DNA of 47,274 nt, taken from NCBI GenBank assembly GCA_040754495.1, contig JBFMCO010000042.1, positions 1 through 47,274 of the forward strand, written 5' to 3'. Below the pieces are notes generated by a model. The model was not told where the DNA came from, searched no databases, and saw only the letters and a program-made list of their open reading frames with translations. The position numbers were made by a program, and so were the translations under genes. This DNA is from Candidatus Micrarchaeota archaeon (GTDB lineage Archaea; Micrarchaeota; Micrarchaeia; Anstonellales; Bilamarchaeaceae). This document shows positions 9,401 through 26,742 of the stretch, piece after piece (the first letter of the stretch is position 1; each line of letters opens with the position of its first letter).

Positions 9401-12400
9401 ATCTTGCAGGCGCAAGAGAGGATTTGCGGCTCTCCGTGCCATTCGAAGTCAGGAGCGGCCGGCTCTACGACCCTGATACAATCACGCGCTCCAACCTCTC
9501 GGACATGCAGTACTGGCAGGGAGTCCAGGAAACGGTGGAGATAGGCGGGAGGATAATCGTCGGCGGGCTGAGCATAGCCCTCGCGCCGGTCACGGGTGGA
9601 GCCTCGCTGGTCGGCGTCGTGCTGCTCGGAGCCGAGCAGGTGGGGCAGGGCTTCGAGATGCGCGCGCAGGAGGGAAGATGGACCGGCCGCGCGGTCTTCA
9701 CTGTCGTCATGGGCGGCGTGTCAATGGTATTGCCGTTCACGGTTTATCTTGCGGAAGCGAGCCAGGTGGCCCAGGCGGTGAACCTTGTCGCGCGCGGGGC
9801 GACCGAGGCCGAAATCGCGCTTGCCGGGGCGACCATGACCTCGAGGCTTGTCCAGGCCGGCGGCCTCTTATACATGGGCGTCGGCATGGGGGATTACCTC
9901 ATCAACCAGCTGCCGGGCGAAATCGACGCCGTGCAGCGCGGGGACAGGCTCTGGTGGCAGGCCGCGGCCGGCGGTCTCTTCCAGACAATCCAGCTTGCGC
10001 AGGTGGGCATCTCCACCTACCGGGGGGCCCAGGTGCAGAGGCAGGGCGGCATACCGGTCTACCGCTCCTGGGGACGGCAGGTGTTCGAGGCGCTCACGAT
10101 GGGCGAGGCGTTCTACACGCGCGAGCAGATGTCGGCCGCGCGCGCGTACCGGACGATGACGACGGAACTCGGCGCGCTTCCCGCCCCTGCGCGTGCATCA
10201 TACGAGGCTTACAGGACCGCACTCGGCGAGCGCGGAATACAGCTTCCCCCCGCGGACCAGGCGCGGCTTCTGACCGGATACCGCGAGGCCGTCGGCCGCG
10301 ACTCGACCATGACCTTCGAGCGCTACGTGCAGACGCCGGAGTACAGGGCAGGAGTGCATGAGCAGGCTTACAACGCTTTCGGCGAGGGAAGGGTTGGCGC
10401 TCATCAGCTCAACGACGAGGAATTCACGTACATGTGGGAGCGCTCGCACGGCTCGCGCGACTCGGCCCAGGCCGAGGCGAACGTTGCCACCGTGAGAGGG
10501 AACGAGCGGATGCAGGCCGGCGAGGCCGCCCTGCGCGACGTGTTCCAGGGGAACAGGACGCGCGCGAGCTTAGACCCGCACGAGCGTGCGTATGTCGAAT
10601 CAAGGCTGCAGGGCCGCCCGCCTACCGAGGCGCTGGCTGCTGCGGACGCCGCAGCCCCGCCGACCAGGGCCGGGGACATGCGCGCCCGCGGCGAGGAGGC
10701 CGCGAGGACGCGCGAGTTCACGCAGGCCAAGGATTTATACGAAGGCGAGATGATCCCCATAATCCCCGGGGGCGCCGAAGAGACGACGTACAGCCACCCG
10801 TCCGAGCCGGGCGTCCAGTATCCGCGCGACCAGATGCAGGCCGCGCGCGACATAGCCGCGACAGCGGAATTCATGATACGGAACGGGAACAGGCTTCCGC
10901 CAGGCATAGCCGCGGACAGCCCGGTTGCTGCACGGGCGCGCGAGCTTGCAGGCACTCCGGAATCGCCGACAGCGTTCAGGCAGTTTGCTGAGCGGCCGGC
11001 AGAGCAGGGGGGGCCGAACCGCGGCGCGCAGATGAGGCTCGCGCTCGAGCAGAGCGACAGGATGCCGCAGTTTGCAGAGAATGCAGTTGACCATGGCATA
11101 GCCTCGACGATGGAAGGGGCGGCAAGCGCGCGCGACCTGAATCAGGCAGAGAGCGGCTCAGCGACGGTCAGGGCGCTTTCGCTTGGGGAAGGATATGGCG
11201 AATTCACGCGCGGCACCCTCACAGAGCAGAGGGCGCGCGAGCTGGGCATAGGCCCGGATGAGATGGCTCTCTTCCAGAGGATGAGGGGCGAGAACGCGTC
11301 GCCGCGCCAGGCCGGCGCGGAGTTCGCAAGGAGGGCGGCTGCCGAGACCAGCGAGAGGGCGCTCGGCGATGCGGTGCATACGGAGTTCAACCAGAGGGCA
11401 GGAACCTTGGCCGAGCCGGCACGCGGCGCTGCGGCGGTAAGGGCCGAGAGGCTCACGGAAGCGTATCATGATTATAATGAGATTAACCTTTCCAATCTCG
11501 GCGCGCCCGAGAGGGCCGCGAGGATTAACGAGGTGCGGACTAGGCTCGGCCTCAGCGACGCCGAGCACGGGTTCCTGACGGCCCGGCTGGGGCTCGAGCG
11601 CGCCGAGGTCGGGCAGGACATCGCAAGGGCGGCCCTCGGGGAGATTCCGCTCGAGAGGCCTGCTGCAGCGCCGCGCGGCGAGGAGGGAAGGACCGGGCCG
11701 AGACCCGAGGAGGCCCCGCCCGTATCGCGGACAGCTGCGATGGAGGCCGAGGTCGGCAACATACGCGGGAGCGAGGCGCTCGAAGCCGGGCTGCGCGGCG
11801 CCTCCGCGGAGGTCGTACGCATAGCGCGCGTGCTCGAGGCGATGGCGCCCGGCGACACGGTGCTCAGCCAGCAGAGGCTGGGGGAGCTTGCAGCCGAGCA
11901 TCCGGAGTACGCGAGTCACATCGAGGCTTACAACAACGCGAGGCCTGAGGAAAGGCCTTTCCTGGCCCGGAGATATGCGGAGGAAATCGCGTTCGGGAGG
12001 AGCTCGCGGGCATTCGAATCCGTGGCCGGACAGCGCGTCACCGGACGGCAGGCGAGCGTCGAGATTGTCGAGGACGCAAGGCTGTTCCACAGGGCCCTGA
12101 ACGGCAGGGACATGACGCCGGCAGAGATGAGCCGCATAACCACCGAGCACTTTGACAGGTTTGAGCGGCTGAGGAGGGCGGGAATGGGCGAAGCCGATGC
12201 CATCCTCCAGGTCGGCCGCGAGATGAGGACCGAGCGCCTGATGAGCGAGCGCGGGATGAACCGCGACCAGGCGACAAGGTTCGTCAATGACGAGGCCGCG
12301 AGGCCGCACGACGTGCCGCTGCGGCCGGAGGAGGGCCTCGGCGAGCAGGACTTCAGGGCCATGCCGTCCGAATACAACACGAGGACCATCACGCTGCCCG

Positions 12401-15400
12401 ACGGCTCGACCACCACGCTAGCCGACGCGCAGAGGGCCAGGCTCATCCGCAGGATTGACAACACCGAGGACTCGGTCGGCTCCACGGCAGGCGTCTGGGT
12501 CGCAGAGATAATGGTGAACGGCCAGCCGAGGACCGTGGCCGTCAAGGTGTTCAAGGACCCGTACGTTCCTGGCGGACAGCAGAGGACGGCCCAGCACTGG
12601 GAGAACCTTTTTGAATTCGTCACGGGCCACCCGGCAAGGGCAGGCGAGCATGCGGAGATGGGCGAGGCCGGAAACCTCTCGGCAATTTCCGGCATGACGT
12701 TCAGGTCAGGCGACGGGAGGGAGCTTCCTGTCGGCCCCGGATTCTACGGCTTCGTGAACGTGGATGGCAACATCGCGGTCGCGATGGACCTGCTGCCGGG
12801 CATGTACATCGGAGACATGAGCCCGACGCAGATACGCGAGTTCGTCCGGCCTGACACTTACGCACAGATACAAAGAATCGGAGAGACGCTCCAGGCGAAC
12901 GGATACGGGATGCATGACTTCCAATTCATAGTCATGTTCCCGCCCGAGTCCGCGATACCGACCGGGCTTACCGGGGCCGCGCGCAGGCAGTTCATAGAGA
13001 ACTGGCGCACGACAATAAACGGCAGGGAGGTCCGCGCAGGGGACGTCGTGCTCATGGATGCCGGCGGGCTTTACCGCGCGGCAGACGAGCCTATGTCCAC
13101 GTTCAGCCCCATAAGGGAGGCGGAAAGGGCGCGCAGCACCGCGGACCAGGTGCTCGTCAACGACGCGCTTGCGAGGACAACCGCGACGGCAGCGGACGCG
13201 AACGCGCCGGGCAGGGCCCAGGCGCAGGCAGACCTGCAGGTCATGGAAGGGTTCATGAGGGAAGTCGAACCGATGGTGAACGCCAGGGACCCCATGGCCG
13301 AAGTTACGCGCCGCTACATGATAAAGAGCGACAGGGCGGACGCCGCTGCTGCAAGGCTCGAGCAGATTCGCGCGAGCGACCCGGCACGGGCCGAGGCAAT
13401 CGAAGGGGCATTCAGGAGATTCGAAAGGGAAGCAGGGCTGCCGGAAGGAAGCATGCTGCCGATGAGGGCTGAGGAAGCTGCCACCGTGCCGCGCCGCGCT
13501 GCGGTTGGCGCTGAAGAGACTACTGTAATAGAGCCCACGAGGCCGTCAAGGGCCCCGACGCCCCCGCCTGGCGAGGGGACGGTCCCGGGAAGGGGCAGGA
13601 GAGGGCCGCCGCCAACCGAAGAAAGGACTACCGCTCCGACAAGGAGGCAGCCTCCGCCAGAGGAAAGGACTGGCACTCCGACCAGGAGGGAGCAGCCGCC
13701 TGGCGAAGGGACAAGGCCGGAACGCAGGGGAGCGCCGGGCGAGAGGCCCGCGGAAGGACCTCCTGCGGCGGAGGTCACCGCTGCTCCGAGGTCGCTCCTT
13801 GACGACATCAGGGGCGGCGCGGGATTGCGCGATGCCATTGACAACCTGTTCGGAGTGGACTCCAACCTCGCAAGGAGGCTCGAGCGCAGGCTCGAGGTGC
13901 TTGAGCAGGACCCGATGTTCGCCGAGCGGTTCAGGGTGGCGACGCCGGAGGAGCGCGCGATAATCGTGGAGTCCCTGGCGAGCGGCATGTCGCCGGCCGA
14001 GGCGTTCCGGAGGATGGCAGCCGAAGGCGCCCCGAGGACAGCCGCGGAATTCACTGCATATGCGGACAGGCTCGCCGGAATGAGCGAGCCCGAGCGCCTC
14101 CTCAGGATACAGGACATAGCCAATTCTGACCCGAGGCTCGGGGAGGCCCTGCTCAGGATGAACCGCGAGACCAACCCGGCAAGAAGGGCGAGGCTCGCTA
14201 CAGAATGGGAAGGGGCGGTGCACGAGCGTGCGCGCGTGCAGGAGGCCCAGGAAGCAAGGGCCGCGCGGACGGCCGATGACCTCCGCACCCAGGAGCTGGA
14301 CATGGTGACGCGGGCCGCGCAGGCGAGGGGTCTTGATACGAGCATCATGACCGAGCTGTACTCGAACGGCGGCACCGAAGGCAGGATGGCCGTGCTCGAA
14401 GGGCTCGGCGTGGACATGTCCCGGTTCAATGCGGAGAGGACAAGGATAGAGGCCATGCCTCCGGGCGATGCCAGGAACACGGCGCAGCAGCGCCTCGACA
14501 CGATGGTGCATGGATTCTTCGAGCTCATGACAAGGGGCGGGCTCGAGGGGCACATAGCTGCCATGCCCGGATACGAGGGCGCGACTGTTACCGGCGTCGA
14601 ATTCCGCGGCGGCATGAGGGGCGTCTATGAGGTAACGCTTTCCAACGGGAGGAGGGTATTCGTAAAGAGCGAGGACGTCGCGCCGGCGCGGTTAGGGCGC
14701 GACCTTGCTGTGGCCGAGGGAATGTGGACATCCCGCATACACGAGGGATACTCATACGACACCGGCCTGACTTACCGCGACGGCACTCCCGTGAGGCAGG
14801 AGTTCGGCATACTCGAGGATATACACGACGTCCGGGGCACCCAGATAACGATAAGGCTGCCTGACGGCTCGACAGAGCAGGTGCGTGTCGTCGGAGTCTC
14901 GATGCTGAGGGACGAGGTGCTAAACGTGCCGCAGCCCCCGCCGCCGGACGCTTCTCCAGAGGTGGTGCGCGCATACGAGCAGAGGCTCGCGGCATTCCTC
15001 GCAGACCCGGTCGTGCAGGAGTTCTACAGGCTCTCCGGGAGCGAAGGGGGGAGGGACAGCATATTCCAGGCCTGGAGGGCGTACCAGGAGATGTCCAGGC
15101 GCGCGGTGCTCGGCGACAGGTTCGCGAGGAACACCGCTGCAGTCATCGTTGAGCGCGCAGACGGCAGCAGGGTTCTTACATTCCAGCCAATAGACATGGA
15201 CGCTGTCGGCTGGAGGGTCGGCTCGAGGCCGGACGGGACGCCGGGCTTCACCGGGCTGAGGACTGATTTCGCCGAGGCGAACGTAGACTTCCTCACCAAG
15301 TTCTCGAGCGCCACGGCGGCCGCGTCGGGCCACGGCCTTATCGGCGGCCGCGTGGACGGGGGGACTCTGCTTGGCAACATGTACAGCCCCACGGCAGAGC

Positions 15401-18400
15401 GCGGGGCCGCGATACCGCCAGACTCGCCCGCAACAAGGCAGAGAGTCGGCGAGATACTTGATGGCCATGACGGCAGGTACTTCGGCGCGGGCTTCGACAC
15501 GACATCCCCGGACATGCCGGCAGTCGGCGAATTCATATCACACGGCGGCAGCGACAGGCCGATAGGAAGGAGCGACGGCCGTGTCGTGCTGCATGCTGAT
15601 GACATGCGCGGCGTTACGGACGCAGCGGCGACGCCGGCCGAGCGCCAGGCGTTCGACCAGGCAGTGCGCGACGAGCTGACGCGCAGGTTTGGCGGAGGCG
15701 GGCGGCCGCCTGGAGGCGGAGGGGGCGAGCCACCGCCCGGTCCGCGAACGACGCCCGAGCGCAGGGGGGGAAGGCCTCCAGGCGAAGGGCAGCCGCCTGG
15801 CGAGAGGACTACCCCCGGAAGGCGCGGGGCGGCCCAACAGGAGCAGCGCGCTGAAGAGAGGACGATGACCGTCCGCGACAGCGACATAGTGGAGGAGAGG
15901 ACCGCTACAGGGGCAAGGCGCGGCCGGGCGGCGGAAGAGAGGACAATCCCTGTCACGACGGACATGATTGTGGAGGAGCGGACAGTCCCGAGGGCGCCGC
16001 CCGTTGAAGAGAGGACCACTCCGCAGAGAGGAGGAGCAGAGCAGCCGCAAGAAGCCACAGTCCCGCGGCCTGCAGAGGCGCAGCCTGCCGTGGCGCCCGC
16101 TCCGGTCACGCGGATGTCACCGGTGGACCTTGTCCAGCCTGACAACCTCGGCGCATTCGCAGGCAGGCTGAACGCAGGCGATGCTACGGCAGCCGCGGAC
16201 CTTGCCGCGATGCCGCCTCAGGTGCGCGAGCAGGTGGGCATTTTCCAGGAAAGGTATGCAGCCGCGGCAGGGAACGCACAGGAGCAGACGCGCATCGCAA
16301 CCGAATACGCGGGCAGGATTCTCGCAAGCAGCCTCGCATCGAGCCCCGAAACGCTCTGGCGGTTCGCGTCGAACTTCAGGTTCGGCCTTGAGAGCAGCCA
16401 GGTCACGCCGCAGGCAAGGGCCATGCTTGACAGCCTCCCGCCCGCAGTGCGCGACCTGGTGATTGAATTCGGCGGCAGGCTTTACAGAGAGTGGAGCCAC
16501 AGGGACGCCCTCGCGCCCGGATATGCCGACAGGATGACGCGCGCGGTCGATGCCGCGGCAGTCGCTGACATGTACGCGCTCCACACGCAGGGCCGCCCGC
16601 CAGCCAATCCGGCGGACAGGGCGGCGATGGAGTTCATCACCGCTGGCGGCACGAGGACGATAGACCCATCTACGCCGGCCGGAGCAAGGGAGATAGACGC
16701 GGCCGTGCAGTTCAGGAGGAGCGCCTCGCGGCTCGTCGAGAGGGACGGAGCCGCGGCGCTGGAGTCCGCGAGGACGCTCGGGGAGAGCGTCAGGACCGGC
16801 GCCAGGCCGGCCGATTTCCAGGGCGCGCTTGCGTACGATGCCGTGCAGGATTTGGCGCGGGCGAGCGCGCAGCAGGCCGGCAGGGCGGTTCCCGGCGCGC
16901 AGGACTACTTCAATGCGGCGGCGACATTCAGGCTTTTCGAGCAGGGCGGGCTTCCCGACACGGCCACGGTGAGGACTCCGCACTTTTCCGGAGGCAACGA
17001 AGCCCTGGAGCAGCACGGCACCGCGTATATAGACTGGGGAGGCCTGCAGGTCGAAGTCCACATTTTCCGGGACAGGGTGAACGTGTTCAGCGTGGAGCCC
17101 GCGGCCATCGGCGAGATGGGCTGGCCTACGAGCGGGATGAGGGAGGCGCTCGCCCGGTACGCGCAGAGGCGTCTTCGGGGGCCGCTCGAGCGCGCCTTCA
17201 GGGGGACGATGCGCCAGATTCCGAGGGAGACCGGAGGCGGGTACGACGTCTGGAGGCCGGTGATGGATTCCATCCAGGCCACAACGCTCGACCTGACGCA
17301 GGGGAGGCTCGCTACGGCACCGCCGGCCGTTGCAAGATACACGCCCGAGGAGATTGTGCGCGTTCACAGAACCGCTGATGTCGCCGCGAGGGGCGAGGCC
17401 GCGGCGGCGTTCCTTGAGATGTCCCCGCAGGACCAGCAGAGGACGCTCGGCCTGCTGCGCGAGAGGGCGAGGCCGCTTGAAGAAAGGGCGGCCGCGCTGG
17501 AGGCAGAAGCCAGGAGGCTCGAGGCCCAGGTCATGCCGGAATATAATAGTATACTTGAGAGGAAGGCAGCCGCGGAGGCCGAGGCAACGAATTATCAAGA
17601 GCAGGTGAGGGCGCTCGACCCGCAGATAAGGGCGGCAGAGCAGAGGGGAGACATGGCAGAGGTCTCCAGGCTGCGGGCCGAGAGGGGCAGGCTGGACGGC
17701 CTCGCGGATGAGAGAAGCACCGCGGCCAGGATGCTGGAGGGCGAGGCCGGGCGGCTGATGCGGCGCGCGAACGACCTGCGCGAGCAGGCGGGCGAGCTGC
17801 GCGCAATGGCCGGCTACTGGAACGAGCAGGGGATGTACTTCAGGGAGCTTGCAGGCCTCGGAGGAGAGATTGGCACTTACCTTTCACAGAGATACGGGGT
17901 GCCGCGGGAGGAGCTCGCGCGCGCATATTCCGCCCAGCCGACCACGGCGGAGGCGAGGCGGGCGCTTTATGACGCGCTCGGCATAAGGCTCGGCGAACTC
18001 CCGGACGCCGCGGTGAGGAGCGACGCCTACAGAAGTTTCACCAGCCTCGCTGATGACCCGTACATCGCAGGCATGATACTCACCGGGGACCTGCTTCGCA
18101 ATGTCGAGGGGATAGTGAGGCCGGACATAGACCCAACAAGCCTCCAGCCCGGAGACCGGGTCGTGGTGCGCGGAATAGACTTCCAGAACGGCCTCGTCGG
18201 GGCGTACCGGCTCACCATTGAAGTCGTTGACAGCCAGGGCAGGCCGCGCACCTTCAGGGACGTGAGCGGGAGGGAGCGCACCTCGATGACCCTCTTCGCC
18301 AAGAGGCAGGGCCTCAGCCCCGATGCCACGGGAAGCGAGGGCGGCAGGCTCACCGGAGCGCCCTCGCCGGACATACTTACAAGAGGCGCGGACGGAAGGG

Positions 18401-21400
18401 CGCTCGTCTATGTCTCGCCCGAAGGGCAGAGAATAGAGTACGGCCTCATGCGCGACATCCGGGACTTCCACGGCCAGATAGATGCCGGAAGGGCACTCAC
18501 CGACTCGCAGGGAAGGCCTGCCAGGGTGGATGTAAGCGTGGATGCCGCCGAAGACCTGTACTCCATAGTATTCTCCTCCGGCAACCCGAGGACGACCGAG
18601 GCGCGGGACCAGCTTTTCGGCGAGTTCCGCGACCATCCGGAGCAGTTCCTCGAGGCCCTCGGCTATGCACAGACAGGCTTCACTGCCGCTGGATTCTACG
18701 ACAGGCACGAAGGCAACGTGTGGGCGATGTGGCTGCGGATAAGGAACCAGCCGGCAGCCGAGGCTGCGCACATCGCGCACCAGCTCGAAAGCCAGGGCTA
18801 CCGCGTGAGGGACAACGGGGATGGCACATGGAGCTTCCTTCGCTTTGGCGCCATAGACTCGGACACGTTCGGCCAGTATCGGGCATTCAGCATGCCCGAC
18901 GGGCAGATTTCCCTCGCCCCGATGAGGGACCAGCTGGTGACGGACCTGCACAGGGTGTTCGTGCACCTGACATACGAAATGAACCAGGCCGAGATAGCCC
19001 GGGCGCACGCCGAAGGAAGGCCGCCAAGGCTTCGGACCGTGGAGGAAGTCACCACCATGGCCTTCGGCGAGAATATGGACGGCCCGTGGATGCGGGGCAT
19101 GAGGCGCTGGGTTTCGGAATTCGCCCCGGACACCCCTGCAGGGGCGCGCTTCAGGGCGGACATGCATTCCCTTTTTGACGGCTACAACGGACAGCGTTCA
19201 GGCATGGGCTTTGCGATGGAGGGGGCGCAGCTCGGCCGCTTCGAGGCGCAGGGCTATGAAGAGATACCATCGGCGCTCAACGGCATGCCGACCACCCACC
19301 TGGACGGCATAGACGGCCGCACGAGCTTCATGGCGAACGGGCGGATGGCGACCAACCCGAGCATAAGCGAGGCCGCAAGCCCGCGCGTCCGGGCCGCCCT
19401 GCCTGACGGACAGGACAGATATCTTGTGCGTATTGACGACATGGGCCGCTCAGAGCGCAGGCAGTTCCTGAGCAGCCTCGAAGCGAGCGGAGTGAGCACC
19501 GCGAGGCTGAGGACCTCGGCCGTCGGCGGAAGGGAATACATAGTCTTCTCAGACTCTGCGGCGATACCGCAGGCGATGTACGGAAGGACTGTCGCGGTGA
19601 GGCGCGATGGAGACCGGGTGTTCGTCAATAATTATGGCGCTCTGCTCACCGCTATTCCGGAGGGAAGGGCCGCGTACGTAGTGCCGCTTGCAGGCATGGG
19701 CAGAGTCGAGGCCCGCAGGCTCAGCAGCGCGCCCGGCGCCAGGGTTCTCGAGCTCAGCATCGGAGGCGAGCAGAGGTTCGTGGTGTTCGACAGCCCGCAG
19801 GCCGTGCCGGAGAGGCACAGGGACAGCGCCATGCAGGTCCGGAGAAGCGGGAGCACCATACTAGGAGATGCCAGGATGCGGGAGAGTATGGGCATAATCA
19901 ATACCAGGGACATCGGAGCAGCCCCGATGTTCGACGGCATGATGAACATGGGAGATGCCGGATGGACCGGGCTCTGGCAGGGAGTCAGGGACGGGGTGCT
20001 GAGGGCAGAGGCAGGCGCCAGGGCGGCTCCGGATGCCGGCTTCCTGCAGAGGAGAGTGCCGAACCCTGGCGACACGCAGGCGCTTCCTCCGGAATACGGA
20101 GGGCCCGGCCGGACGATTCCTGTTTCTGAAAGCGACCTCATCCCGCAGGGCAGCCCCCCGAGGCCGCCCCCTCAGCCGCCCGCAGGGGGCGGCGGGACCA
20201 GGAGGGGAGTCGCCCCGCCGGCAGAAGAGGGCCAACCCCAGCCGGCCAGGAGACAGCCCCCACCACCGCCGCAGCCGAGTGAAGGCAGGGGGACCGTGAG
20301 GATGGCTCCGCTCCCTCCTGCGGACCAGATGGCCATGCCCGGGCCGGCGCAGGTCCCGCGCGAGGGGGGAACACCTGGCGAACGCGCGGATGCGGCACAG
20401 ATGGCAGGACGGCTCATCGCCGGCGACCCGAACGCCCGGACGCAATTCACCGGGAGCTCCCAGGGAATGCAGGATGCCGTAGGCTTTGAGCTGGCGCAGC
20501 AGCTCAACCTGACAAGGCCGGGAGACATTGCCAATTTTGCAAGGGACGTCGCCCTCTACGAGCTCCACAGGACCGGGGAGAGACCCATCACCGACCCTGC
20601 CGTGCTTGCGCGCGTCGAGAGGAACGCAAGCCTGCACGCGCTCCTTCCCGAGAGGGTGAGGACGGCTGTGAGCGGCCTTGCCGGGAACAGCGCGTTCATA
20701 CTCAGCGCGAGGGGCACCGACAGGGCATTCGAAAGATATGTGGGCAACCGGAGGCTGGGCGGCGCGCTCGTAGGCGGGGCGCAGCGGGAGATTGCCGGGG
20801 CGGTCAATGCGCACTTTGCGGCCGGCCAGGGAGCTGGGCCCAGGATTCAGATTCCCCAGCAGGAGCTTGCACGCATCTCCGCAGACCTTGATGCCGCAGT
20901 GAGGACGGGCCAGCCGACGGGCTCTGTTGTGGCGATAACCGCATTCGCCGAGCAGGGCGTCTATCGGGTGATAATCGAGCGCGCGGACGGGACCCGCACG
21001 CCTTTCATATACAGGGAGCGCCCCTTCAGGCAGGAAGCTTTCGGCTCGGAGCTTTATGCCGCGGCCGGGCAGCAGGCACCGCATTTCATACGCCTGGGCG
21101 AAGGGCCCGACGCGAGGGCGCTGCAGGAGGTCGTCGGCGAGATGGACTTCCGCACGGCGCTGGCGCAGGGCAACCTGACCGAAGCAGAGAGGCAGTCGCT
21201 ATTCCGCGAGGCCGGGAGGCTCGGCATGATTGATTATGCGCTCGGCCTGCCTGATTCCCATGCTGGGAATTATGTCGTCGTGAGGGGGGAGGGAGGCACC
21301 CTCAGCCTCATGAGGATTGATTTCGAGAATGCCGGCATCGGGTGGGGGAGGGGCATACGCCCGGATGGCAGCGTAGGGAACAGGGACCACGTGATTTTCT

Positions 21401-21909
21401 TCAAAATGATAACGCGCGAGATAAAGCGCGGCACCTATACGCCCGGGGACATCGCGGCGTTTTTCGAGGGGATAAGGGAGGGGGCCGCAGAGGTCGGGAG
21501 GATGGATGCCGACGCTCTGACCGCGGTTGCCGGAAGATACGCAGGCACCGTGCTGAGCAGGGACGCGCAGGGCACGGCCACTTTCACCGTGGACCAGGCC
21601 CTGATAGACGCGATGGGGGCAAGGATAAGGGGCATCCAGGGCGACCCGGTCGCAGCGCGCGTCCAGATGCTGGAGTACATCTTCGTCCCGCTCAGGGAGG
21701 CGCTCGGCCGCGGGAACGCAGAGGCGATTGCGGAGATAGTAGGGGTGCTGCGGACGGAAATCCATGACGTGCCCACCGACGTGCTCCAAAGATGGAAAAT
21801 CAACTTCCAGGGGCTCCTTCAGAGCGCAAGGACCGAAGAGATAAGGACCGGGCTGAGAGGCGTGCTGGGAGTCGTGGATGAAGAACTAGGAAGAAGGGGA
21901 CCCACCTGA
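3466..21909 (+). CDS. giant protein G1 (6147 aa): helical scaffold, hydrophobic translocation-like region, four kinase-fold domains
   Basis: Uninterrupted 18.4-kb ORF, collinear with G2. Kinase motifs: VAVK/HDFQF/DAG (12535-13059), VFVK/DRFARN/IDMD (14656-15200), LFAK/DRHEGN/IDSD (18292-18864), DSHAGN/IDFE (21253-21327). Hydrophobic segments at 9514-10020. Confidence 0.92.
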   Translation: MAQTQRGGAPGRRVETAEQEVLRELALPLPTVRAPPPDVLRPLQTAISAAEGRVNDLFRLGPEVDRRVGVSPDRERRREGEQERARAEERAAEVPRVKGYLDVIRGQQLGGLEQHAERIYQTVTEADRLIRAGRREEGLRLYETVRPQVGRLYQLLPIARDIATSGLPEEQQRTLIGGANAAMYFYSQGQAARGDIIMQNLETFSRHRDTLMRPEARLARMTIVATVENLSDRRRSITEENLGRAQRDATQMETTLTQAESERRELAAQAFAHQSESLYTFYGTASPEMRQRIDQAREYLDGLATRLRAGETVTDEELRRGAMLTQAMHLGIGVLDGIESTTEKRQVESVYLAAFDVLLTGGNIDTHSSIMLAAQDITGPRGNAALRRSLSTAATAYSTALRSPDATADRKQAAEGALIGVYARHVSGRLGTASSSLTGDMRTRADALAAPLTEHPETATLDQLRFARAGTEVLESRTRHFGRAFNPSAPVRTGADAIYGRALDSLQSGGSVDIAMAQSSLAERYVQTGDETRRTRLEGLSGRLAQNPRELSSVMFYIDADARSQEIRDALPSLPAAARAQGQRLLEGLDAMMATIASGQPLVDDGRVLQAKTEMLARMERDAGFSQQIEQTARVLMMQTPGMTRDQALTEIARAQATEAEMRRGEEMLTTLSTMTDLVRSARGNPARQAEIAEIFSVGVDALLARNTARAATIRQTAALYPRFATDADRRSVLAAVRGLRDGTVQEENFGAYMQVQSQRAEFESSITDPALKRNFRAYMDLAALAALRGDRLERESVLDLAVMYARWASVPANQGGVALMEARSRGMEFVQQRLGDYRRNPDILAGRRLIDAGQARSWTPRAGTITAENAPLTAAILGEGSISEAVGGGDRVAGVSALTALRRDTYTHLAASEDADWERSLARLEGRTPAEQSAVERRWTREAARLRREAASARARGQEALAVHYERQAELVDPQFMHEAFTVARSAYAEYRTEERAAIAFSDEADRARDADITNVTTLATRTREMIGEMPEAQRAEYEARLRQAGTDQAALRTLYLDVMRVRSEQLINGLPEGLQATARQRLRDAGSDEAGMRNVYVSLLRTHAGMHAARGEELRTAAMRIRDDMASLDRGVRLTTVHRTSGRFQLAVSIRTSMAVAGGYDCDFLGRPIEREETTPGGETRRVRVPLTRPRAAQLTAQASAASRVGRGAVDFQVAIERRRDRANAVERAQLTQDIGRFKTLLTTMIDSLPEGNRQQYRDLMTQAGDDPAMLQEIFRRLGNEGVRTQDDQGHEYADIEDRAGDARRAIGLRYAERFGAADALSSSSRSDFRGGVLQARNWLSDQAVARLYNSSTGTQIIGVGTLDLSYTSAETGQPVTVQVTNITPSSELIDNMIQKLPPSSEREALRQRLLAMPAGPAGNDQRQALFSSLLDREVYDPRRAPGTGVTFRAVIERGDSFYYHASEYDQQIAEARALGRSGRGSEAQAALDRIEGDMGRSEIASRSDARELGARHTAWETRRREEGLRGRYTEGLPNQEEHPRSYGEAQDRNDAVTGDHVRLRDGSRTSLLGLYEGSMERGAADMDRLADRHGGVRDTILAGGQMLQPTVEVAVALAAALADSPRDHTLANGRTYAQMLNDLTLPGSPQEQAQRAAALYQAIMDNPQDFAAAARIIREGHDDRGYTYVSGLSSDLVTQLDVTADEMATYGRQRERERTWAFADTHLRRGQSEHRLGDSSHRYRRATSERHREDEARLGWAPHYQTAETHWENAAREYEMAATMLLEGNDTRFTDIVVRNEPVTAPMFEFRGRAAREWHYDGPAYVTVYSENRGTFGTLGRLQPRVLNIPEEMYSLTRREAREMASYTDDDIRGEARQKYDQMGISRVRLELATYGIGTRWHEEEGGGYWGLYRTNMTPEAQRLANEAFQHGEALWDQVSGRIFAHSSDWGDDYVMGFLNRTADRFASDLSAMAAAEGENLAGAREDLRLSVPFEVRSGRLYDPDTITRSNLSDMQYWQGVQETVEIGGRIIVGGLSIALAPVTGGASLVGVVLLGAEQVGQGFEMRAQEGRWTGRAVFTVVMGGVSMVLPFTVYLAEASQVAQAVNLVARGATEAEIALAGATMTSRLVQAGGLLYMGVGMGDYLINQLPGEIDAVQRGDRLWWQAAAGGLFQTIQLAQVGISTYRGAQVQRQGGIPVYRSWGRQVFEALTMGEAFYTREQMSAARAYRTMTTELGALPAPARASYEAYRTALGERGIQLPPADQARLLTGYREAVGRDSTMTFERYVQTPEYRAGVHEQAYNAFGEGRVGAHQLNDEEFTYMWERSHGSRDSAQAEANVATVRGNERMQAGEAALRDVFQGNRTRASLDPHERAYVESRLQGRPPTEALAAADAAAPPTRAGDMRARGEEAARTREFTQAKDLYEGEMIPIIPGGAEETTYSHPSEPGVQYPRDQMQAARDIAATAEFMIRNGNRLPPGIAADSPVAARARELAGTPESPTAFRQFAERPAEQGGPNRGAQMRLALEQSDRMPQFAENAVDHGIASTMEGAASARDLNQAESGSATVRALSLGEGYGEFTRGTLTEQRARELGIGPDEMALFQRMRGENASPRQAGAEFARRAAAETSERALGDAVHTEFNQRAGTLAEPARGAAAVRAERLTEAYHDYNEINLSNLGAPERAARINEVRTRLGLSDAEHGFLTARLGLERAEVGQDIARAALGEIPLERPAAAPRGEEGRTGPRPEEAPPVSRTAAMEAEVGNIRGSEALEAGLRGASAEVVRIARVLEAMAPGDTVLSQQRLGELAAEHPEYASHIEAYNNARPEERPFLARRYAEEIAFGRSSRAFESVAGQRVTGRQASVEIVEDARLFHRALNGRDMTPAEMSRITTEHFDRFERLRRAGMGEADAILQVGREMRTERLMSERGMNRDQATRFVNDEAARPHDVPLRPEEGLGEQDFRAMPSEYNTRTITLPDGSTTTLADAQRARLIRRIDNTEDSVGSTAGVWVAEIMVNGQPRTVAVKVFKDPYVPGGQQRTAQHWENLFEFVTGHPARAGEHAEMGEAGNLSAISGMTFRSGDGRELPVGPGFYGFVNVDGNIAVAMDLLPGMYIGDMSPTQIREFVRPDTYAQIQRIGETLQANGYGMHDFQFIVMFPPESAIPTGLTGAARRQFIENWRTTINGREVRAGDVVLMDAGGLYRAADEPMSTFSPIREAERARSTADQVLVNDALARTTATAADANAPGRAQAQADLQVMEGFMREVEPMVNARDPMAEVTRRYMIKSDRADAAAARLEQIRASDPARAEAIEGAFRRFEREAGLPEGSMLPMRAEEAATVPRRAAVGAEETTVIEPTRPSRAPTPPPGEGTVPGRGRRGPPPTEERTTAPTRRQPPPEERTGTPTRREQPPGEGTRPERRGAPGERPAEGPPAAEVTAAPRSLLDDIRGGAGLRDAIDNLFGVDSNLARRLERRLEVLEQDPMFAERFRVATPEERAIIVESLASGMSPAEAFRRMAAEGAPRTAAEFTAYADRLAGMSEPERLLRIQDIANSDPRLGEALLRMNRETNPARRARLATEWEGAVHERARVQEAQEARAARTADDLRTQELDMVTRAAQARGLDTSIMTELYSNGGTEGRMAVLEGLGVDMSRFNAERTRIEAMPPGDARNTAQQRLDTMVHGFFELMTRGGLEGHIAAMPGYEGATVTGVEFRGGMRGVYEVTLSNGRRVFVKSEDVAPARLGRDLAVAEGMWTSRIHEGYSYDTGLTYRDGTPVRQEFGILEDIHDVRGTQITIRLPDGSTEQVRVVGVSMLRDEVLNVPQPPPPDASPEVVRAYEQRLAAFLADPVVQEFYRLSGSEGGRDSIFQAWRAYQEMSRRAVLGDRFARNTAAVIVERADGSRVLTFQPIDMDAVGWRVGSRPDGTPGFTGLRTDFAEANVDFLTKFSSATAAASGHGLIGGRVDGGTLLGNMYSPTAERGAAIPPDSPATRQRVGEILDGHDGRYFGAGFDTTSPDMPAVGEFISHGGSDRPIGRSDGRVVLHADDMRGVTDAAATPAERQAFDQAVRDELTRRFGGGGRPPGGGGGEPPPGPRTTPERRGGRPPGEGQPPGERTTPGRRGAAQQEQRAEERTMTVRDSDIVEERTATGARRGRAAEERTIPVTTDMIVEERTVPRAPPVEERTTPQRGGAEQPQEATVPRPAEAQPAVAPAPVTRMSPVDLVQPDNLGAFAGRLNAGDATAAADLAAMPPQVREQVGIFQERYAAAAGNAQEQTRIATEYAGRILASSLASSPETLWRFASNFRFGLESSQVTPQARAMLDSLPPAVRDLVIEFGGRLYREWSHRDALAPGYADRMTRAVDAAAVADMYALHTQGRPPANPADRAAMEFITAGGTRTIDPSTPAGAREIDAAVQFRRSASRLVERDGAAALESARTLGESVRTGARPADFQGALAYDAVQDLARASAQQAGRAVPGAQDYFNAAATFRLFEQGGLPDTATVRTPHFSGGNEALEQHGTAYIDWGGLQVEVHIFRDRVNVFSVEPAAIGEMGWPTSGMREALARYAQRRLRGPLERAFRGTMRQIPRETGGGYDVWRPVMDSIQATTLDLTQGRLATAPPAVARYTPEEIVRVHRTADVAARGEAAAAFLEMSPQDQQRTLGLLRERARPLEERAAALEAEARRLEAQVMPEYNSILERKAAAEAEATNYQEQVRALDPQIRAAEQRGDMAEVSRLRAERGRLDGLADERSTAARMLEGEAGRLMRRANDLREQAGELRAMAGYWNEQGMYFRELAGLGGEIGTYLSQRYGVPREELARAYSAQPTTAEARRALYDALGIRLGELPDAAVRSDAYRSFTSLADDPYIAGMILTGDLLRNVEGIVRPDIDPTSLQPGDRVVVRGIDFQNGLVGAYRLTIEVVDSQGRPRTFRDVSGRERTSMTLFAKRQGLSPDATGSEGGRLTGAPSPDILTRGADGRALVYVSPEGQRIEYGLMRDIRDFHGQIDAGRALTDSQGRPARVDVSVDAAEDLYSIVFSSGNPRTTEARDQLFGEFRDHPEQFLEALGYAQTGFTAAGFYDRHEGNVWAMWLRIRNQPAAEAAHIAHQLESQGYRVRDNGDGTWSFLRFGAIDSDTFGQYRAFSMPDGQISLAPMRDQLVTDLHRVFVHLTYEMNQAEIARAHAEGRPPRLRTVEEVTTMAFGENMDGPWMRGMRRWVSEFAPDTPAGARFRADMHSLFDGYNGQRSGMGFAMEGAQLGRFEAQGYEEIPSALNGMPTTHLDGIDGRTSFMANGRMATNPSISEAASPRVRAALPDGQDRYLVRIDDMGRSERRQFLSSLEASGVSTARLRTSAVGGREYIVFSDSAAIPQAMYGRTVAVRRDGDRVFVNNYGALLTAIPEGRAAYVVPLAGMGRVEARRLSSAPGARVLELSIGGEQRFVVFDSPQAVPERHRDSAMQVRRSGSTILGDARMRESMGIINTRDIGAAPMFDGMMNMGDAGWTGLWQGVRDGVLRAEAGARAAPDAGFLQRRVPNPGDTQALPPEYGGPGRTIPVSESDLIPQGSPPRPPPQPPAGGGGTRRGVAPPAEEGQPQPARRQPPPPPQPSEGRGTVRMAPLPPADQMAMPGPAQVPREGGTPGERADAAQMAGRLIAGDPNARTQFTGSSQGMQDAVGFELAQQLNLTRPGDIANFARDVALYELHRTGERPITDPAVLARVERNASLHALLPERVRTAVSGLAGNSAFILSARGTDRAFERYVGNRRLGGALVGGAQREIAGAVNAHFAAGQGAGPRIQIPQQELARISADLDAAVRTGQPTGSVVAITAFAEQGVYRVIIERADGTRTPFIYRERPFRQEAFGSELYAAAGQQAPHFIRLGEGPDARALQEVVGEMDFRTALAQGNLTEAERQSLFREAGRLGMIDYALGLPDSHAGNYVVVRGEGGTLSLMRIDFENAGIGWGRGIRPDGSVGNRDHVIFFKMITREIKRGTYTPGDIAAFFEGIREGAAEVGRMDADALTAVAGRYAGTVLSRDAQGTATFTVDQALIDAMGARIRGIQGDPVAARVQMLEYIFVPLREALGRGNAEAIAEIVGVLRTEIHDVPTDVLQRWKINFQGLLQSARTEEIRTGLRGVLGVVDEELGRRGPT
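12233..13465 (+). repeat. ~1.2-kb intergene duplication (kinase-1 module), second copy at 38374-39595
   Basis: Protein about 80% identical by eye, including a 53-aa identical run. Identical DNA tracts 12976-13031 = 39117-39172 (56 bp) and 13048-13121 = 39189-39262 (74 bp). Confidence 0.95.
13465..13790 (+). repeat. Pro/Arg/Thr-rich low-complexity linker with PPGEG and EERT repeats (within G1)
   Basis: Translation shows PPPGEGT, TEERTT, PEERTG and QPPGEGT. Confidence 0.75.
15690..16110 (+). repeat. Gly/Pro-rich linker with five EERT-x repeats (within G1)
   Basis: Translation shows AEERTM, VEERTA, AEERTI, VEERTV, VEERTT, plus GERTT and PPGEG. Confidence 0.8.
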
Positions 21910-23205
21910 CCAGGAGTTCTCGTCGCCTGCGCTGATGACGTCGGAGTCGCCCATCACGACCCGGACGTGGTCCGCATCCTTGTTCTTGGAGGCGAGCCGC
22001 AGGGCGCTCCTGATCGCGTCCTCGAACTTCTTCCAGTCCACTTTCGAATCGGTGTATGTATTCACTACCACTTCTTCCACCGCGATGCGCCTTTCCTTGT
22101 CGATGAGGATGGCGACCATCGAGTTGCCGTCCCTCCTGATTCCGAAAACGTAGTCCGCCCAGCTTATGCGGTCACTCTCGCCGGTGAGGATGAAGTGGGG
22201 GTCTATGTGCCTCGCTGAATACGATTTGGTGGGGACGACGAAATAGGCATAATCCGCCGCCTCCTCCACCACGCCTTCGGCCGGGATGTCGAGGAGCTTC
22301 GATATCGCCGGGGGTATGCTTGAGAGCCTCTGCGGAAGCTTGTCGCTACTGACACGCTTTACGTCGTCCGGCATGCTGATACTAGCGCCCTGCGGCTTTA
22401 AATCCTTTTCATCGCAGCCGTAGTAGCGGCAGGCGGATGAAACGGTGTCGCTGAGAAGGTCCTTCGAGTTCCGCAGCTCTATGACTGCCATTCCCCCATA
22501 GCCAATGACATCGAGCGAGACTGCGAAGCGCTCCCAGTCCACCATCCCCGAGCCGATGGGGATGTGCTTGACTGACCTGCCATCCGCCACCGCGCGGTCG
22601 GAAAGATGCAGGTGCTTCAGCCTCGGGAGGGCCGCCTCCATGTGCCCCACCACGAGCCCGGTGTATGTCCCGCCCTGCATTCCCGGCAGGATGGCCGGAT
22701 GGGTGGTGTCGATGCAGAAGCCGAGGTTGGGCGGCGAGTCCTCTATCAGGCTCCTGAACGCTTTAATCGTCTCGGGCGAGTGCAGGACGGACGATTCGCT
22801 CGTCATGTTCTCCACTGCAAGGACGAGGCCGGGCGGTATCCTCTCGGCAATCCGCCGCAGCGTGTCCGCAAGGGCCGCCATCTGCCCGTTGCCGGGGTGG
22901 ATGACGGCAACCTTCGGCTCGAGTATATCGTGGACATCGCGGCAGAAATTCGCCACCCGGGAGACGGTTACCTTGTCGGCGGTCGTCAGATTGAAGCCGC
23001 GGAGATGGACCGAGTAGGTGCTGATGCCGGCCTCGAGCAGCATGAGGCGCGAGGAGGCGAGCCTTGCGCGCTCGTCGCGGTCAAGGACCTGCTTAAGGCC
23101 GTAAAGGTCCAGCTCTACTGCGGAGAAAAACCTGCCAAATTCCTTGATGCGCGAGGTTTCGGTGAACTTGATGCTGGGAATGAGCAGTTTTCGGGGTTCG
23201 TGCAT
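21886..23205 (-). CDS. sugar-phosphate isomerase/AP endonuclease 2 (EndoIV-like) TIM-barrel protein fused to a C-terminal family-X domain
   Basis: Metal-ligand motifs SVH, IHPG, AVEN, IDTTH, HLHLSD, KHIPIGSG and VIE are present. The track ORF starts at 23319, but ATG 23205 (MHEPRK) lies ~25 nt below TATA 23229-23238. The last ~160 aa match family X. Confidence 0.85.
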   Translation of the reverse strand: MHEPRKLLIPSIKFTETSRIKEFGRFFSAVELDLYGLKQVLDRDERARLASSRLMLLEAGISTYSVHLRGFNLTTADKVTVSRVANFCRDVHDILEPKVAVIHPGNGQMAALADTLRRIAERIPPGLVLAVENMTSESSVLHSPETIKAFRSLIEDSPPNLGFCIDTTHPAILPGMQGGTYTGLVVGHMEAALPRLKHLHLSDRAVADGRSVKHIPIGSGMVDWERFAVSLDVIGYGGMAVIELRNSKDLLSDTVSSACRYYGCDEKDLKPQGASISMPDDVKRVSSDKLPQRLSSIPPAISKLLDIPAEGVVEEAADYAYFVVPTKSYSARHIDPHFILTGESDRISWADYVFGIRRDGNSMVAILIDKERRIAVEEVVVNTYTDSKVDWKKFEDAIRSALRLASKNKDADHVRVVMGDSDVISAGDENSWSGGSPSS

Positions 23206-23228
23206 ATCCTTGTTTATGGCAGGAAGCG

Positions 23229-23238
23229 TATATAAATA
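23229..23238 (-). promoter_or_regulatory. TATA-like box for the TIM-barrel gene
   Basis: tatttatata on the minus strand with an A-rich upstream stretch, ~25 nt before ATG 23205. Confidence 0.5.
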
Positions 23239-23272
23239 GTGTGGTTTTTTGTTAAAAAAATTGTAAGTATGT

Positions 23273-23878
23273 TCAGACCGGCTTCCCCGGGGACCACGCC
23301 GTGATCCCTTCGAGGCCAACAGGAGCCTTCGGCTCTGCCATCCTCATCGTCCTGAGGCTGCTGTCATAGACCGCGACGAGCCCCTCCTTCTTCGCGTCCT
23401 CCTGCCCGGCGCGGGCGAGAGCAGACTTGAGCTCCGACTTGACCTCGGCCCAGTCGAGCGAGGCCTCGGCCTGGATTGACATCAGCCTTTTCTTCACTAT
23501 GACGCGGCGCTTCATGTCAGCGATGACGATGTAAGTGTTGTTGGCGGTCTCCATCAGCGCGATGCCGAACGCTTCCGTGTTCCGGGGGAGCGGGGCGTTG
23601 TGCACCAGGCTCAAAACGATACTGCTGATTGAAAAATCGGCGTCACTCGAATAATATTGCGCGGCCCCCCCGCTGCTCACAAGCATCATGGGGGGGATGC
23701 CAAGCAGGCGCTCGAGCTCGGCGTCCCAGTTCTTTCCGAGGGCAGACAGGCGCCTTACCAGCTCGGATGAAGTGACGTGCCCGGTCTGCCTGGATTGGAC
23801 GAGCGGCTCGGCCGCCTTATCGAAAGGCCTTTTCGGCCCGTCCGCCTCCTTCTTCCGCTTCGAGCGCTCCCCTGCCAT
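23273..23878 (-). CDS. family-X hypothetical protein (copy X2)
   Basis: 201 aa. Aligns over its whole length with 46721->47272 (LG[KR]NWD.E.E.LL..PP, YYS.D..F.I, [FY]GIA, AD..R..IV, DW..[VF]K..LK.A, VAV[YH]D..LR). Confidence 0.85.
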   Translation of the reverse strand: MAGERSKRKKEADGPKRPFDKAAEPLVQSRQTGHVTSSELVRRLSALGKNWDAELERLLGIPPMMLVSSGGAAQYYSSDADFSISSIVLSLVHNAPLPRNTEAFGIALMETANNTYIVIADMKRRVIVKKRLMSIQAEASLDWAEVKSELKSALARAGQEDAKKEGLVAVYDSSLRTMRMAEPKAPVGLEGITAWSPGKPV

Positions 23879-23887
23879 AAGACGTCC

Positions 23888-24502
23888 CTATATTGTGCTT
23901 ATCGAGCTCTCCTTGCTGATGATGAAATCGAACTTTTCGCCGGTAGCCTCGCGCCTGCGGACGGCCTGGAGCGCGGCCCGGACGGAATCGCCGAACATGT
24001 TCCAGGAGTCGCCCTCGGCGAACGCGTTGCCTACGCTGTCATGGACTATGATTTTCCTCCTGCGGTCCAAGAGCGTGCAGAATGTGCTGCTGCCCCGCGA
24101 ACTGATGTAGATGCCGTAATCAGGCAGGAGCATAGGCATCGAAGAGTTGAACGTGAGATACGCGACGACCTTTCCTATCCCGTTCGATGGGTCGGATGAA
24201 ATCGATGGCCCAGGACCGACCGAATAGAGCCTCTCGGGAAGCTCGAGGAGAGATACGACATCCTCTGGGATGCGCCCGACGGTTTCCAGCAGGGCAACCG
24301 CGCCTTCCCTGTCCATGCCCGCAGGAGCACGCTCAGCCATAACACCACCTCTCTGGAATCGCCTCTGTGCGGCGTCCCGTCCGGCCGGGAAGGGTATGAC
24401 CACACCGGTTCTTCCTGCCATGACCTTATTAGGAGCTCCGAACGTCTTTAAAAGAGGACTGTCGCCTCTGCCGCCGTCTGTGCCGTTCCCATGAAAAACC
24501 AT
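23888..24502 (-). CDS. family-X hypothetical protein (copy X3)
   Basis: Contains YGIYI...LLDRRRKIIV...SWNMFGDSVRAAL. Start is either ATG 24502 (TATA-like box ~25 nt upstream) or ATG 24340 (SD-like gaggtg, 150 aa). Confidence 0.8.
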   Translation of the reverse strand: MVFHGNGTDGGRGDSPLLKTFGAPNKVMAGRTGVVIPFPAGRDAAQRRFQRGGVMAERAPAGMDREGAVALLETVGRIPEDVVSLLELPERLYSVGPGPSISSDPSNGIGKVVAYLTFNSSMPMLLPDYGIYISSRGSSTFCTLLDRRRKIIVHDSVGNAFAEGDSWNMFGDSVRAALQAVRRREATGEKFDFIISKESSISTI

Positions 24503-26403: not shown

Positions 26404-26742
26404 ATGGATTCGCCCGACTCGAGGCGGGATAATGGCCCGGCGCAGGAGCCTGTTCCGGAGTTCGAACTGGTCACGGAGAATAACATAGAACGGACTGAGA
26501 GGGACATACTGGTCAGGGTGAACAGGAGCATCTCGAGCTTGGAGTCCGCCCTGGCTGGCTGGGATGCCGCAAAAGAAAAGCCCGATGATTTGCGGGAGGA
26601 GTACGAGAGGTCCAGGCTCCTCCATGACGCGCTCGTGGACTGGGAAACGAAGATGCTCCGGTCCATGGGCGAGAGGATGGGTTTTTTCGAGAGGGTCGAG
26701 AGGCTCAGGGAATTCATCAGAATAGTTGAAAGATACGCATAG
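26404..26742 (+). CDS. small alpha-helical partner protein 2 (paralog of 3118-3459)
   Basis: 112 aa, ~45% identical core with 3118-3459. Stop is 8 nt before the G2 start. Confidence 0.9.
   Translation: MDSPDSRRDNGPAQEPVPEFELVTENNIERTERDILVRVNRSISSLESALAGWDAAKEKPDDLREEYERSRLLHDALVDWETKMLRSMGERMGFFERVERLREFIRIVERYA

Follow-up and report, generated by a model that had tools for sequence, protein, structure and literature searches.

Two types of kinase-fold module and their small partner genes in giant proteins of a Candidatus Micrarchaeota genome

The giant genes, their modules and the adjoining small genes

We analyzed contig C42 (JBFMCO010000042.1; 47,274 nt, hereafter the window) of a 1.63-Mb, 72-contig, 80%-complete Candidatus Micrarchaeota genome. 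The window carries two giant open reading frames (ORFs) on the plus strand. G1 (3466-21909) encodes 6147 amino acids (aa), among them 19 lysines and one cysteine. G2 (26751-46709) encodes 6652 aa, with 437 lysines and three cysteines, and an RtcA gene lies between the two. Among named relatives, those closest to this RtcA (up to 77% identity) belong to Candidatus Micrarchaeota and Ca. Bilamarchaeum. Both giants contain two modules, here called K2 and K3, which we found to represent a new kinase-fold family. In G1, the K2-type domain (~370 aa) occupies aa 3690-4060 (14533-15645, plus strand) and the K3-type domain (~460 aa) occupies aa 4881-5343 (18106-19494, plus strand).

The initial annotation of this DNA, made from the sequence alone, had read positions 14590-19990 as serial PI3/4-kinase/HipA-like domains. 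This range corresponds to G1 residues ~3709-5508 and comprises K2, then a proline-rich linker and an uncharacterised stretch of ~800 aa, and then K3. Copies had also been proposed in G2 at ~40310-41410 and ~43970-45870. We saw both of them on the plus strand, K2 at aa 4504-4900 (40260-41450, with DRFSRN at 40869) and K3 at aa 5726-6204 (43926-45362, with DRHELN at 44445). G1 and G2 are collinear across the K2-K3 part, with 33-36% protein identity (BLASTP).

Three genes of one small-protein family, named X, follow G1 closely on the minus strand. X1 (23273-23878, minus strand) is a type-A partner and the presumed cognate of G1 K3. X2 (23888-24502, minus strand) is a type-B partner and the predicted binder of the catalytic cleft of G1 K2. 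The third gene (21886-23319, minus strand) encodes a 477-aa fusion protein, in which a TIM barrel of the xylose-isomerase-like kind (PF01261, E = 1.3e-19) is followed by a divergent X-family C-terminus (~aa 324-469). It is convergent with G1 and overlaps its 3′ end by 24 bases. Another type-A gene, X3 (46721-47272, minus strand), adjoins G2 and is incomplete, as the contig ends within it. Type A thus comprises X1 and X3 and type B comprises X2, and the partners are ~150-200 aa long. No significant Pfam, NCBIfam or PADLOC match was found for the K2, K3 and X proteins, with whole giants or with isolated domains, and for K2 and K3 there was no Pfam or NCBIfam match even at E = 1.

Fold and structural neighbors

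AlphaFold2 gave confident models for both G1 domains. The predicted local distance difference test score (pLDDT) was 90.3 and the predicted template modelling score (pTM) was 0.89 for K2 (10 aligned sequences); the values for K3 were 86.3 and 0.82 (19 aligned sequences). Foldseek searches against the PDB returned weak E-values (best 6e-4 to 8e-4), and every match had a kinase fold. All of the best 50 rows of both wide VIA searches, as well as the Foldseek and Atlas matches, were protein-kinase-like (PKL) enzymes. The domains thus model as kinase-fold domains one by one, as the initial annotation had expected.

For K2, the longest aligned stretch in VIA was with the Bacillus spore-coat protein kinase CotH (5jda, 5jd9), an atypical PKL enzyme (Z 11.1-11.2, 267-268 residues, root-mean-square deviation (rmsd) 6.0 Å). 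Vps34 (2x6f, 7rsp) scored Z 11.0-11.2 (235 aa, 4.8 Å), PI4KIIalpha (4pla) 10.9 and PI4KIIIbeta (8q6f) 10.6. The Physarum actin-fragmin kinase (1cja), a minimal PI3K-like protein kinase, was also near the top (Z 10.3-10.8, 220-234 aa, 4.2-5.0 Å), followed by Tel1/ATM (10.0-10.3) and CtkA (9.2-9.7). Bud32, SelO, Fam20, RIO, APH and MavQ came lower, at Z 8-9. A second VIA look, on Foldseek's list, agreed with the wide K2 search. The best K3 neighbor was actin-fragmin kinase (Z 9.8, 226 aa, 5.2 Å), with PI4KIIIbeta at 9.7 and CotH at 9.4, and Bud32 (8.7), LicM2 (8.5) and CtkA (7.0) below them. The PI3K/PI4K group, CotH and actin-fragmin kinase were therefore tied within 1 Z. An ESM Atlas search returned clusters of LanM dehydratase, HipA_C, fructosamine kinase/APH and Fam20C. 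HipA itself appeared only among weak Foldseek matches (ranks 15-20, E ~5e-3) and as HipA_C in the Atlas (template modelling scores 0.42/0.56), and it was absent from the best 50 VIA rows for K2. In these models, the fold is firmly protein-kinase-like, and its nearest relatives seem to be the atypical group of PI3K/PI4K, actin-fragmin kinase and CotH.

Sequence profiles did not extend these likenesses to any named family. The hidden Markov model (HMM) of PI3/PI4 kinases (PF00454) gave no K2 or K3 match at E up to 1, and neither did the HipA HMMs PF07804 (HipA_C) and PF20613 (HipA_2) match them. K2 and K3 also had no match to the CotH (PF08757) and actin-fragmin kinase (PF09192) HMMs, so that this similarity is structural only (Z 9.4-11.2). 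No kinase came up in sequence searches of the PDB, whether the query was a single domain or a profile of 56 sequences. The reading of the domains as PI3/4K-, HipA- or CtkA-like thus stood for the kinase fold, but not for family membership, considering the missing Pfam and NCBIfam matches, the structural tie and the lower position of HipA. Membership of the PI3/4K or HipA families was not demonstrated.

The modules might nevertheless be proposed to phosphorylate phosphoinositides or other lipids as PI3K/PI4K do, with membrane lipids of a host or of the cell itself, e.g. archaetidylinositol, as targets. The bilobal kinase fold is common to both. Vps34, PI4KIIalpha, PI4KIIIbeta and the PIKKs are among the top neighbors (K2 Z 10-11.2, K3 8.3-9.7; for PI3K/PI4K, K2 Z 10.6-11.2 over ~235 residues at rmsd ~4.8-5.1 Å). 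The order of the G-loop, the beta3 lysine, the D-R-H-x-x-N-type loop and the I-D-x-type metal site is the same, the K3 loop has an invariant histidine, and the giant contains membrane-type hydrophobic segments. However, besides the lack of a PF00454 match, two protein kinases, CotH and actin-fragmin kinase, tie with or beat the lipid kinases. The histidine of the DRH motif is not conserved in the K2 type, and IDxD stands in place of IDFG. K2 and K3 add a Gly-rich beta-hairpin extension of the C-lobe, with DG...G.G and DGR motifs. They also stand serially in a giant archaeal protein, and each has a small partner of its own. The cleft is predicted to hold a folded protein (see below), which fits a protein-directed site at least equally well. 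We therefore consider lipid kinases unlikely. The two protein kinases differ from the modules as well. CotH belongs to the bacterial spore coat and superimposes at high rmsd, and actin-fragmin kinase is a eukaryotic single-domain enzyme that has no partner protein.

Catalytic residues and their conservation

Direct indexing located the motifs listed in the initial annotation, including the shared C-lobe and DGR, at the positions it had given for both giants. In G1 K2, the G-loop is at aa 3716-3721 (14611-14628), the lysine of VFVK at aa 3734 (14665), DIHD at aa 3785, DRFARN at aa 3884-3889 (15115-15132) and IDMD at aa 3909-3912; the key residues are Lys 3734, Asp 3884, Asn 3889, Asp 3910 and Asp 3912. 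G1 K3 has its G-loop at aa 4909-4914 (18190-18207), the lysine of LFAK at aa 4946 (18301), DIRD at aa 4997, DRHEGN at aa 5079-5084 (18700-18717) and IDSD at aa 5130-5133, with Lys 4946, Asp 5079, His 5081, Asn 5084, Asp 5131 and Asp 5133 as key residues.

We counted the conservation of these columns over 57 K2-type and 17 K3-type domains, and the catalytic motifs were conserved across the homologs. In the K2 type, the columns of Asp3884, Asn3889 and Asp3910 are 100% conserved, Asp3912 is kept in 93%, the two glycines of the G-loop in 91-96% and Lys3734 in 84%. The losses of Lys3734 are concentrated in a stand-alone form described below. In the K3 type, the G-loop, Asp5079, His5081, Asn5084, Asp5131 and Asp5133 are invariant and Lys4946 is present in 16 of 17. 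In other words, the Asp, His and Asn of the D-R-H-x-x-N loop are found in 17/17 K3-type domains, and the K2 type keeps the Asp and Asn in every domain with a variable position between them.

That variable position bears on an earlier proposal. The DRF of G1 K2, in place of DRH, had been taken to suggest altered specificity. However, the third position is occupied by F in 15, R in 12, H in 10, Y in 10 and A in 4 of the 57 K2-type domains, while the K3 type has an invariant His. Since the position is free across the K2 type, DRF is no special feature of the G1 copy, and the proposal was not supported. The same variability rules out DRF as the mark of a dead or special copy.

The features that define the PKL superfamily were all found: a bilobal fold, a G-loop, a beta3 lysine, a catalytic Asp and an Asn five residues apart, and a metal-binding Asp. 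Because this catalytic set is kept in both types, K2 and K3 are most likely active ATP-dependent phosphotransferases, as far as can be judged from conservation.

Loss of lysine from the giants

The amino acid composition of the giants gave a second line of evidence. Lysine makes up only 19 of the 6147 residues of G1 (0.31%), with arginine at 12%, compared with 3.9% lysine in the mid-sized ORFs of the genome and 6.6% in G2. Five of the 19 lysines are in kinase motifs: 3734 and 3945 in K2, 4946 in K3, and 3027 and 3030 in the VAVKVFKD motif of another candidate domain, K1. Giants of the family are bimodal in lysine content, with 18 of them at 0.08-1.06% and the others at 3.8-10.6%. Most giants of the family are purged of lysine and cysteine. 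In the 18 lysine-poor giants, the beta3-column lysine is kept in 26 of 27 K2/K3 modules. One of these giants, P0009, has four lysines in 4987 aa, and two of the four are beta3-column lysines.

In kinases, the lysine at the beta3 position binds the phosphates of ATP. Selection has thus removed lysine nearly everywhere but at the ATP-phosphate-binding position, which is strong indirect evidence, drawn from sequence, that the modules are active. Catalytic residues are rarely marked out by nature as they are here, by a purge that spares the lysines predicted to bind ATP. The purge also hints at a protein working where lysines are a liability.

The conserved residues have to be weighed against the view that the modules are dead scaffolds (pseudokinases) which dock X, or enzymes of other chemistry such as AMPylation (SelO) or glutamylation (SidJ). 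SelO is indeed a neighbor at Z 8.1-8.5. The lysine is missing in the stand-alone K2-type forms and in P0017, P0054 and P0035, and K4, a further candidate domain of G1, has no lysine at the expected position. However, the catalytic Asp, the Asn and the metal-binding Asp are invariant in the 57 and 17 domains, and the 26 lysines that survived the purge would be hard to explain without a chemical role. Dead modules, or modules of another chemistry, therefore seem very unlikely.

Kinship of K2 and K3

The initial annotation had called these two domains internal duplicates. No K2-K3 match appeared in a BLASTP self-comparison. With two-sequence profiles, hhalign aligned them at a probability of 97.2% (E = 3.6e-11, 339 columns), and with profiles of 10 and 8 sequences at 99.1% (E = 1.3e-18, 307 columns). 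The motifs were collinear in the hhalign alignment, which extended from the G-loop to the Gly-rich C-lobe and DGR. Similarly, an HMM of 56 K2 sequences matched G1 K3 over positions 18-317, nearly its whole length (independent E = 1.8e-10). Judged from these profiles, K2 and K3 are homologous, with a resemblance far beyond chance. As their relationship is invisible to BLASTP, the copies are old.

A quick maximum-likelihood tree (IQ-TREE) of the 57 K2-type and 17 K3-type domains pointed in the same direction. One branch, with 100% support in the Shimodaira-Hasegawa-like approximate likelihood ratio test (SH-aLRT), splits the K2 from the K3 type, although the types were set by HMM matches and the split is partly by construction. 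The G1 copies group with those of the giants P0003 and P0004, and the G2 copies with those of P0020 and P0061. As the G1 copies each group with counterparts in other giants, the duplication predates the radiation of the family, and G1 and G2 are, on the evidence of the tree, old paralogues. The idea of internal duplicates was thus right in that the domains are homologous, but only as ancient duplicates; a recent tandem duplication of K2/K3 inside G1 was ruled out by the tree.

Distribution of the family

A word-indexed search of 5.8 billion proteins returned eight giants, and an exhaustive profile search of 1.84 billion representatives returned 70 proteins. The ten weakest of the 70 had no Pfam family and provided no bridge to a named family. 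A scan of 401 genomes of the phylum found the K2 type in 22 of the 76 that belong to the same family as the window, and in none of the 325 searched from other families.

The K2-type matches were nearly always inside ORFs of 3,000-8,600 aa. Besides these, a stand-alone form of ~810 aa recurs: one copy is in the same genome as the window (contig C7, 15003-17441), and the others are P0039, P0044, P0046, P0048 and P0049. Judged from the loss of their beta3 lysine, the stand-alone forms may be pseudokinases.

In the literature searched, including one paper on Micrarchaeota genomics, we found no published description of the family. K2 and K3 thus add to the protein-kinase-like superfamily a branch that is covered by no domain library.

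Pairing of the modules with partner genes

A word-based homolog search with X2 returned only X2 itself, and we traced the X family through paralogues in the same genome and through genome scans. Within that genome, the numbers of modules and X genes fit a one-to-one rule. G1 has K2 and K3 with one type-B and one type-A gene. A giant on contig C22 has two K2-type modules and one K3-type module with two type-B genes and one type-A gene, and the stand-alone K2-type protein on C7 has one type-B gene. The type-B partner of G2 would be expected past the contig end.

The relatives showed the same tendency. A convergent type-B gene was on the contig at 18 of 23 sampled K2-type loci. Similarly, for 18 of 22 K3-type matches a type-A gene was found in convergent orientation, in most cases no more than a few kb away; several pairing cases were cut by contig ends. 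Loci with one module type carry the matching partner type only. Even the stand-alone K2-type forms that lack the beta3 lysine each have an adjoining type-B gene. It seems that type B would serve K2 and type A would serve K3. The TIM barrel-X fusion may be a third partner, for K4.

Predicted complex of K2 and X2

We predicted the complex of G1 K2 with X2 from alignments of 56 rows (K2) and six rows (X2). The interaction prediction score from aligned errors (ipSAE) was 0.84 (runs 0.82, 0.84 and 0.85), compared with 0.00 for the best of three controls. Of 80 solved complexes, 58 score at least this high, and so do 2 of 110 mismatched pairs; this benchmark is only rough for custom alignments such as ours. 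The runs shared at least 37% of contacts, and the pLDDT of the partner was at least 68. The model is support for binding, not a demonstration of it.

On the K2 side, the confident contacts of the predicted interface include the G-loop (residues 25-31 and 33 in domain numbering, +3689 for G1), the beta3 lysine (45), the DIH motif, the Asp, Phe, Arg and Asn of the catalytic loop (195, 197, 199, 200), IDxD (220, 221, 223) and the helix that follows it. X2 contributes a hairpin (aa 133-140), a helix (aa 156-176) and its C-terminus. As one small element of X2 touches all of the catalytic motifs, these motifs line one cleft in the model. The contacts on the G-loop, the lysine, and the catalytic and metal Asp would leave little room for ATP.

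A partner in the cleft might also be a substrate or an obligatory activator, for example a phosphorylated carrier or adaptor, or a protein modified by LanM-like phosphorylate-and-eliminate chemistry. The cleft hairpin of X2 is Ser/Thr-rich in the window copy, and LanM-type dehydratases are among the structural neighbors (LicM2 Z 9.0 and 8.5, CylM 7.0, Atlas LanM template modelling score 0.53). However, no Ser or Thr of the hairpin is invariant across the six type-B paralogues, and the hairpin sequence of type A differs. Only the hairpin Gly is invariant, so that a conserved phospho-acceptor is unlikely and a plug is favored over a substrate. Together with the little room predicted for ATP, these observations make a substrate or activator role distinctly improbable.

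Comparison with known kinase-partner and toxin systems

HipA is a kinase toxin under the control of a small partner, and HipB neutralizes it without entering the active site. K2 and K3 share with HipA and CtkA the PKL fold and a D-x-H-x-x-N-type loop. They differ from HipA in lacking an HMM match and in that their partner is predicted inside the cleft.

The giants also resemble MARTX-type proteins and polymorphic toxins in their very large size, their hydrophobic segment, their serial enzymatic heads and a small cognate protein for each type of head. Polymorphic toxins include toxin domains of kinase fold (Tox-Peptide Kinase, PMC3482391), and immunity families are reported to be mostly absent from archaea (PMC3482391). 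Unlike the C-terminal, swapped heads of polymorphic toxins, K2 and K3 are archaeal, internal, conserved and orthologous across giants, and their partner genes are convergent, whereas an immunity gene would be co-directional and directly downstream. No trafficking, secretion or processing domain was recognized by Pfam in the giants, and their delivery is presumed. What points to X proteins as putative head-blocking cognates is the type-specific gene pairing together with the predicted cleft-filling complex.

A possible multi-headed effector

On balance, the evidence leans slightly towards a family of PKL enzymes of two types, undescribed so far, in which each type is gated by a cognate partner that plugs the cleft, the whole being a multi-headed effector. 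The basis is the fold, the homology, the conservation, the gene pairing and the predicted interface, from which we infer catalysis, inhibition and delivery. K2 and K3 would be two anciently diverged types of one family, confined, as far as searched, to giants (and the ~800-aa stand-alone form) of one Micrarchaeota family. Each type would be paired with its own small partner, encoded convergently just downstream of the giant, and the partner would insert its hairpin into the catalytic cleft. The enzyme head would thus most likely be held blocked in the producing cell by a cognate inhibitor, either immunity-like or pseudosubstrate-like. The giant, with its hydrophobic hairpins and its serial heads on proline-rich linkers, would act as an effector at the symbiont-host interface. 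Considering the restriction to host-dependent Micrarchaeota, the purge of lysine and cysteine, and the analogy with kinase toxins, an effector-with-inhibitor logic seems most likely, in which delivery, substrate and inhibition are all presumed.

Several observations weigh against this interpretation. The structural matches have only modest Z scores (9.4-11.2, at an rmsd of 4.2-6.0 Å), which single out no family. The stand-alone K2-type forms have Ser, Asn or His in place of the beta3 lysine, and G2 is not lysine-poor. In the same genome, three X genes are on C65, a contig that has no K2/K3 module, and in two other genomes (G169 and G262) K2-type modules are present with the X gene undetected. 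In classical toxin-immunity pairs the two genes run in the same direction, whereas the partner genes here are convergent with the giant. G1 has no signal peptide, and its hydrophobic segments are at aa 2030-2097 only. Finally, the partner alignment behind the K2-X2 model is shallow (six rows), and an inhibitor, a substrate and an activator are indistinguishable in it.

A more specific scenario is tentative at best. G1 and G2 might be inserted into or through the membrane of the host, where their kinase heads would be toxic or manipulative. The X proteins would serve as immunity plugs before delivery, and the loss of lysine would evade lysine-directed tagging in the foreign cytoplasm. To our knowledge, no effector has been defined by which Micrarchaeota or other DPANN archaea would act on their hosts. 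If the scenario is true, the giants and their X proteins would make up the first described effector-immunity system of DPANN archaea, with a new kinase family as its basis. In any case, the locus offers two small kinase-fold domains with defined catalytic residues, and for each a matching partner with a predicted interface.

Other kinase-like parts of G1

The initial annotation had suggested that three or four kinases on one chain may hit several targets. This is plausible, as G1 has four candidates, but two of them, K1 and K4, are leads only and appear to belong to families other than K2/K3.

K1 (aa 2940-3280; 12283-13305, plus strand) is a separate candidate minimal kinase with the motifs GSxAGV, VAVK, DFQF and DAGG. 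Its language-model neighbors are clusters of APH, RIO1, ABC1, OspG and YrbL, which we regard as a lead. A relationship to K2 was ruled out (hhalign 1.6%). The K1 region of G1 (12217-13460) and that of G2 (38358-39592) share 81% DNA and 82.7% protein identity; outside this region, the giants can hardly be aligned (33-36% identity at the protein level). A similar identity, ~79%, was seen for the K1 of P0008, which comes from another genome. This likeness points to recent exchange or gene conversion, or to a much stronger constraint on the cassette. On C65, a 1237-aa ORF with K1-like segments lies ~25 kb from the X genes, which are at 824-1372, 5068-5616 and 5650-6183 (locus L020; two type-B, one type-A).

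K4 (aa 5800-6147; 20863-21906, plus strand) is a candidate PI3/4K/HipA-like domain found in G1 only, with the motifs DSHAGN and IDFEN. It had a sub-threshold PF00454 match (E = 0.23, 11.8 bits vs. a cut-off of 27.1), and its Atlas neighbors, again as a lead, are PI3_PI4_kinase, LepB_N, HipA_2 and Act-Frag_cataly at 0.91-0.95. Against the K2 profile, hhalign gave only 44% (E = 2.3e-4). As a member of K2/K3 it was ruled out: its independent E-values with their HMMs were in the hundreds, and it had no homolog in the set.

Other features of the window

Past K3 (19500-20400, G1 aa ~5345-5650) are two similar beta-rich units of ~50 aa, which are kept in G2 and in other giants. A small gene, U1 (3118-3459, plus strand), is upstream of G1 in the same direction, and its paralogue at ~26404-26739 (plus strand) is directly upstream of G2 and co-directional with it. 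Both encode ~111-113 aa, and neither had a significant family match. An N6/N4 DNA methylase gene (PF01555) is at 122-1006 on the minus strand, in a stretch (1-2000) of 47% G+C, compared with 62-68% G+C in the giants.

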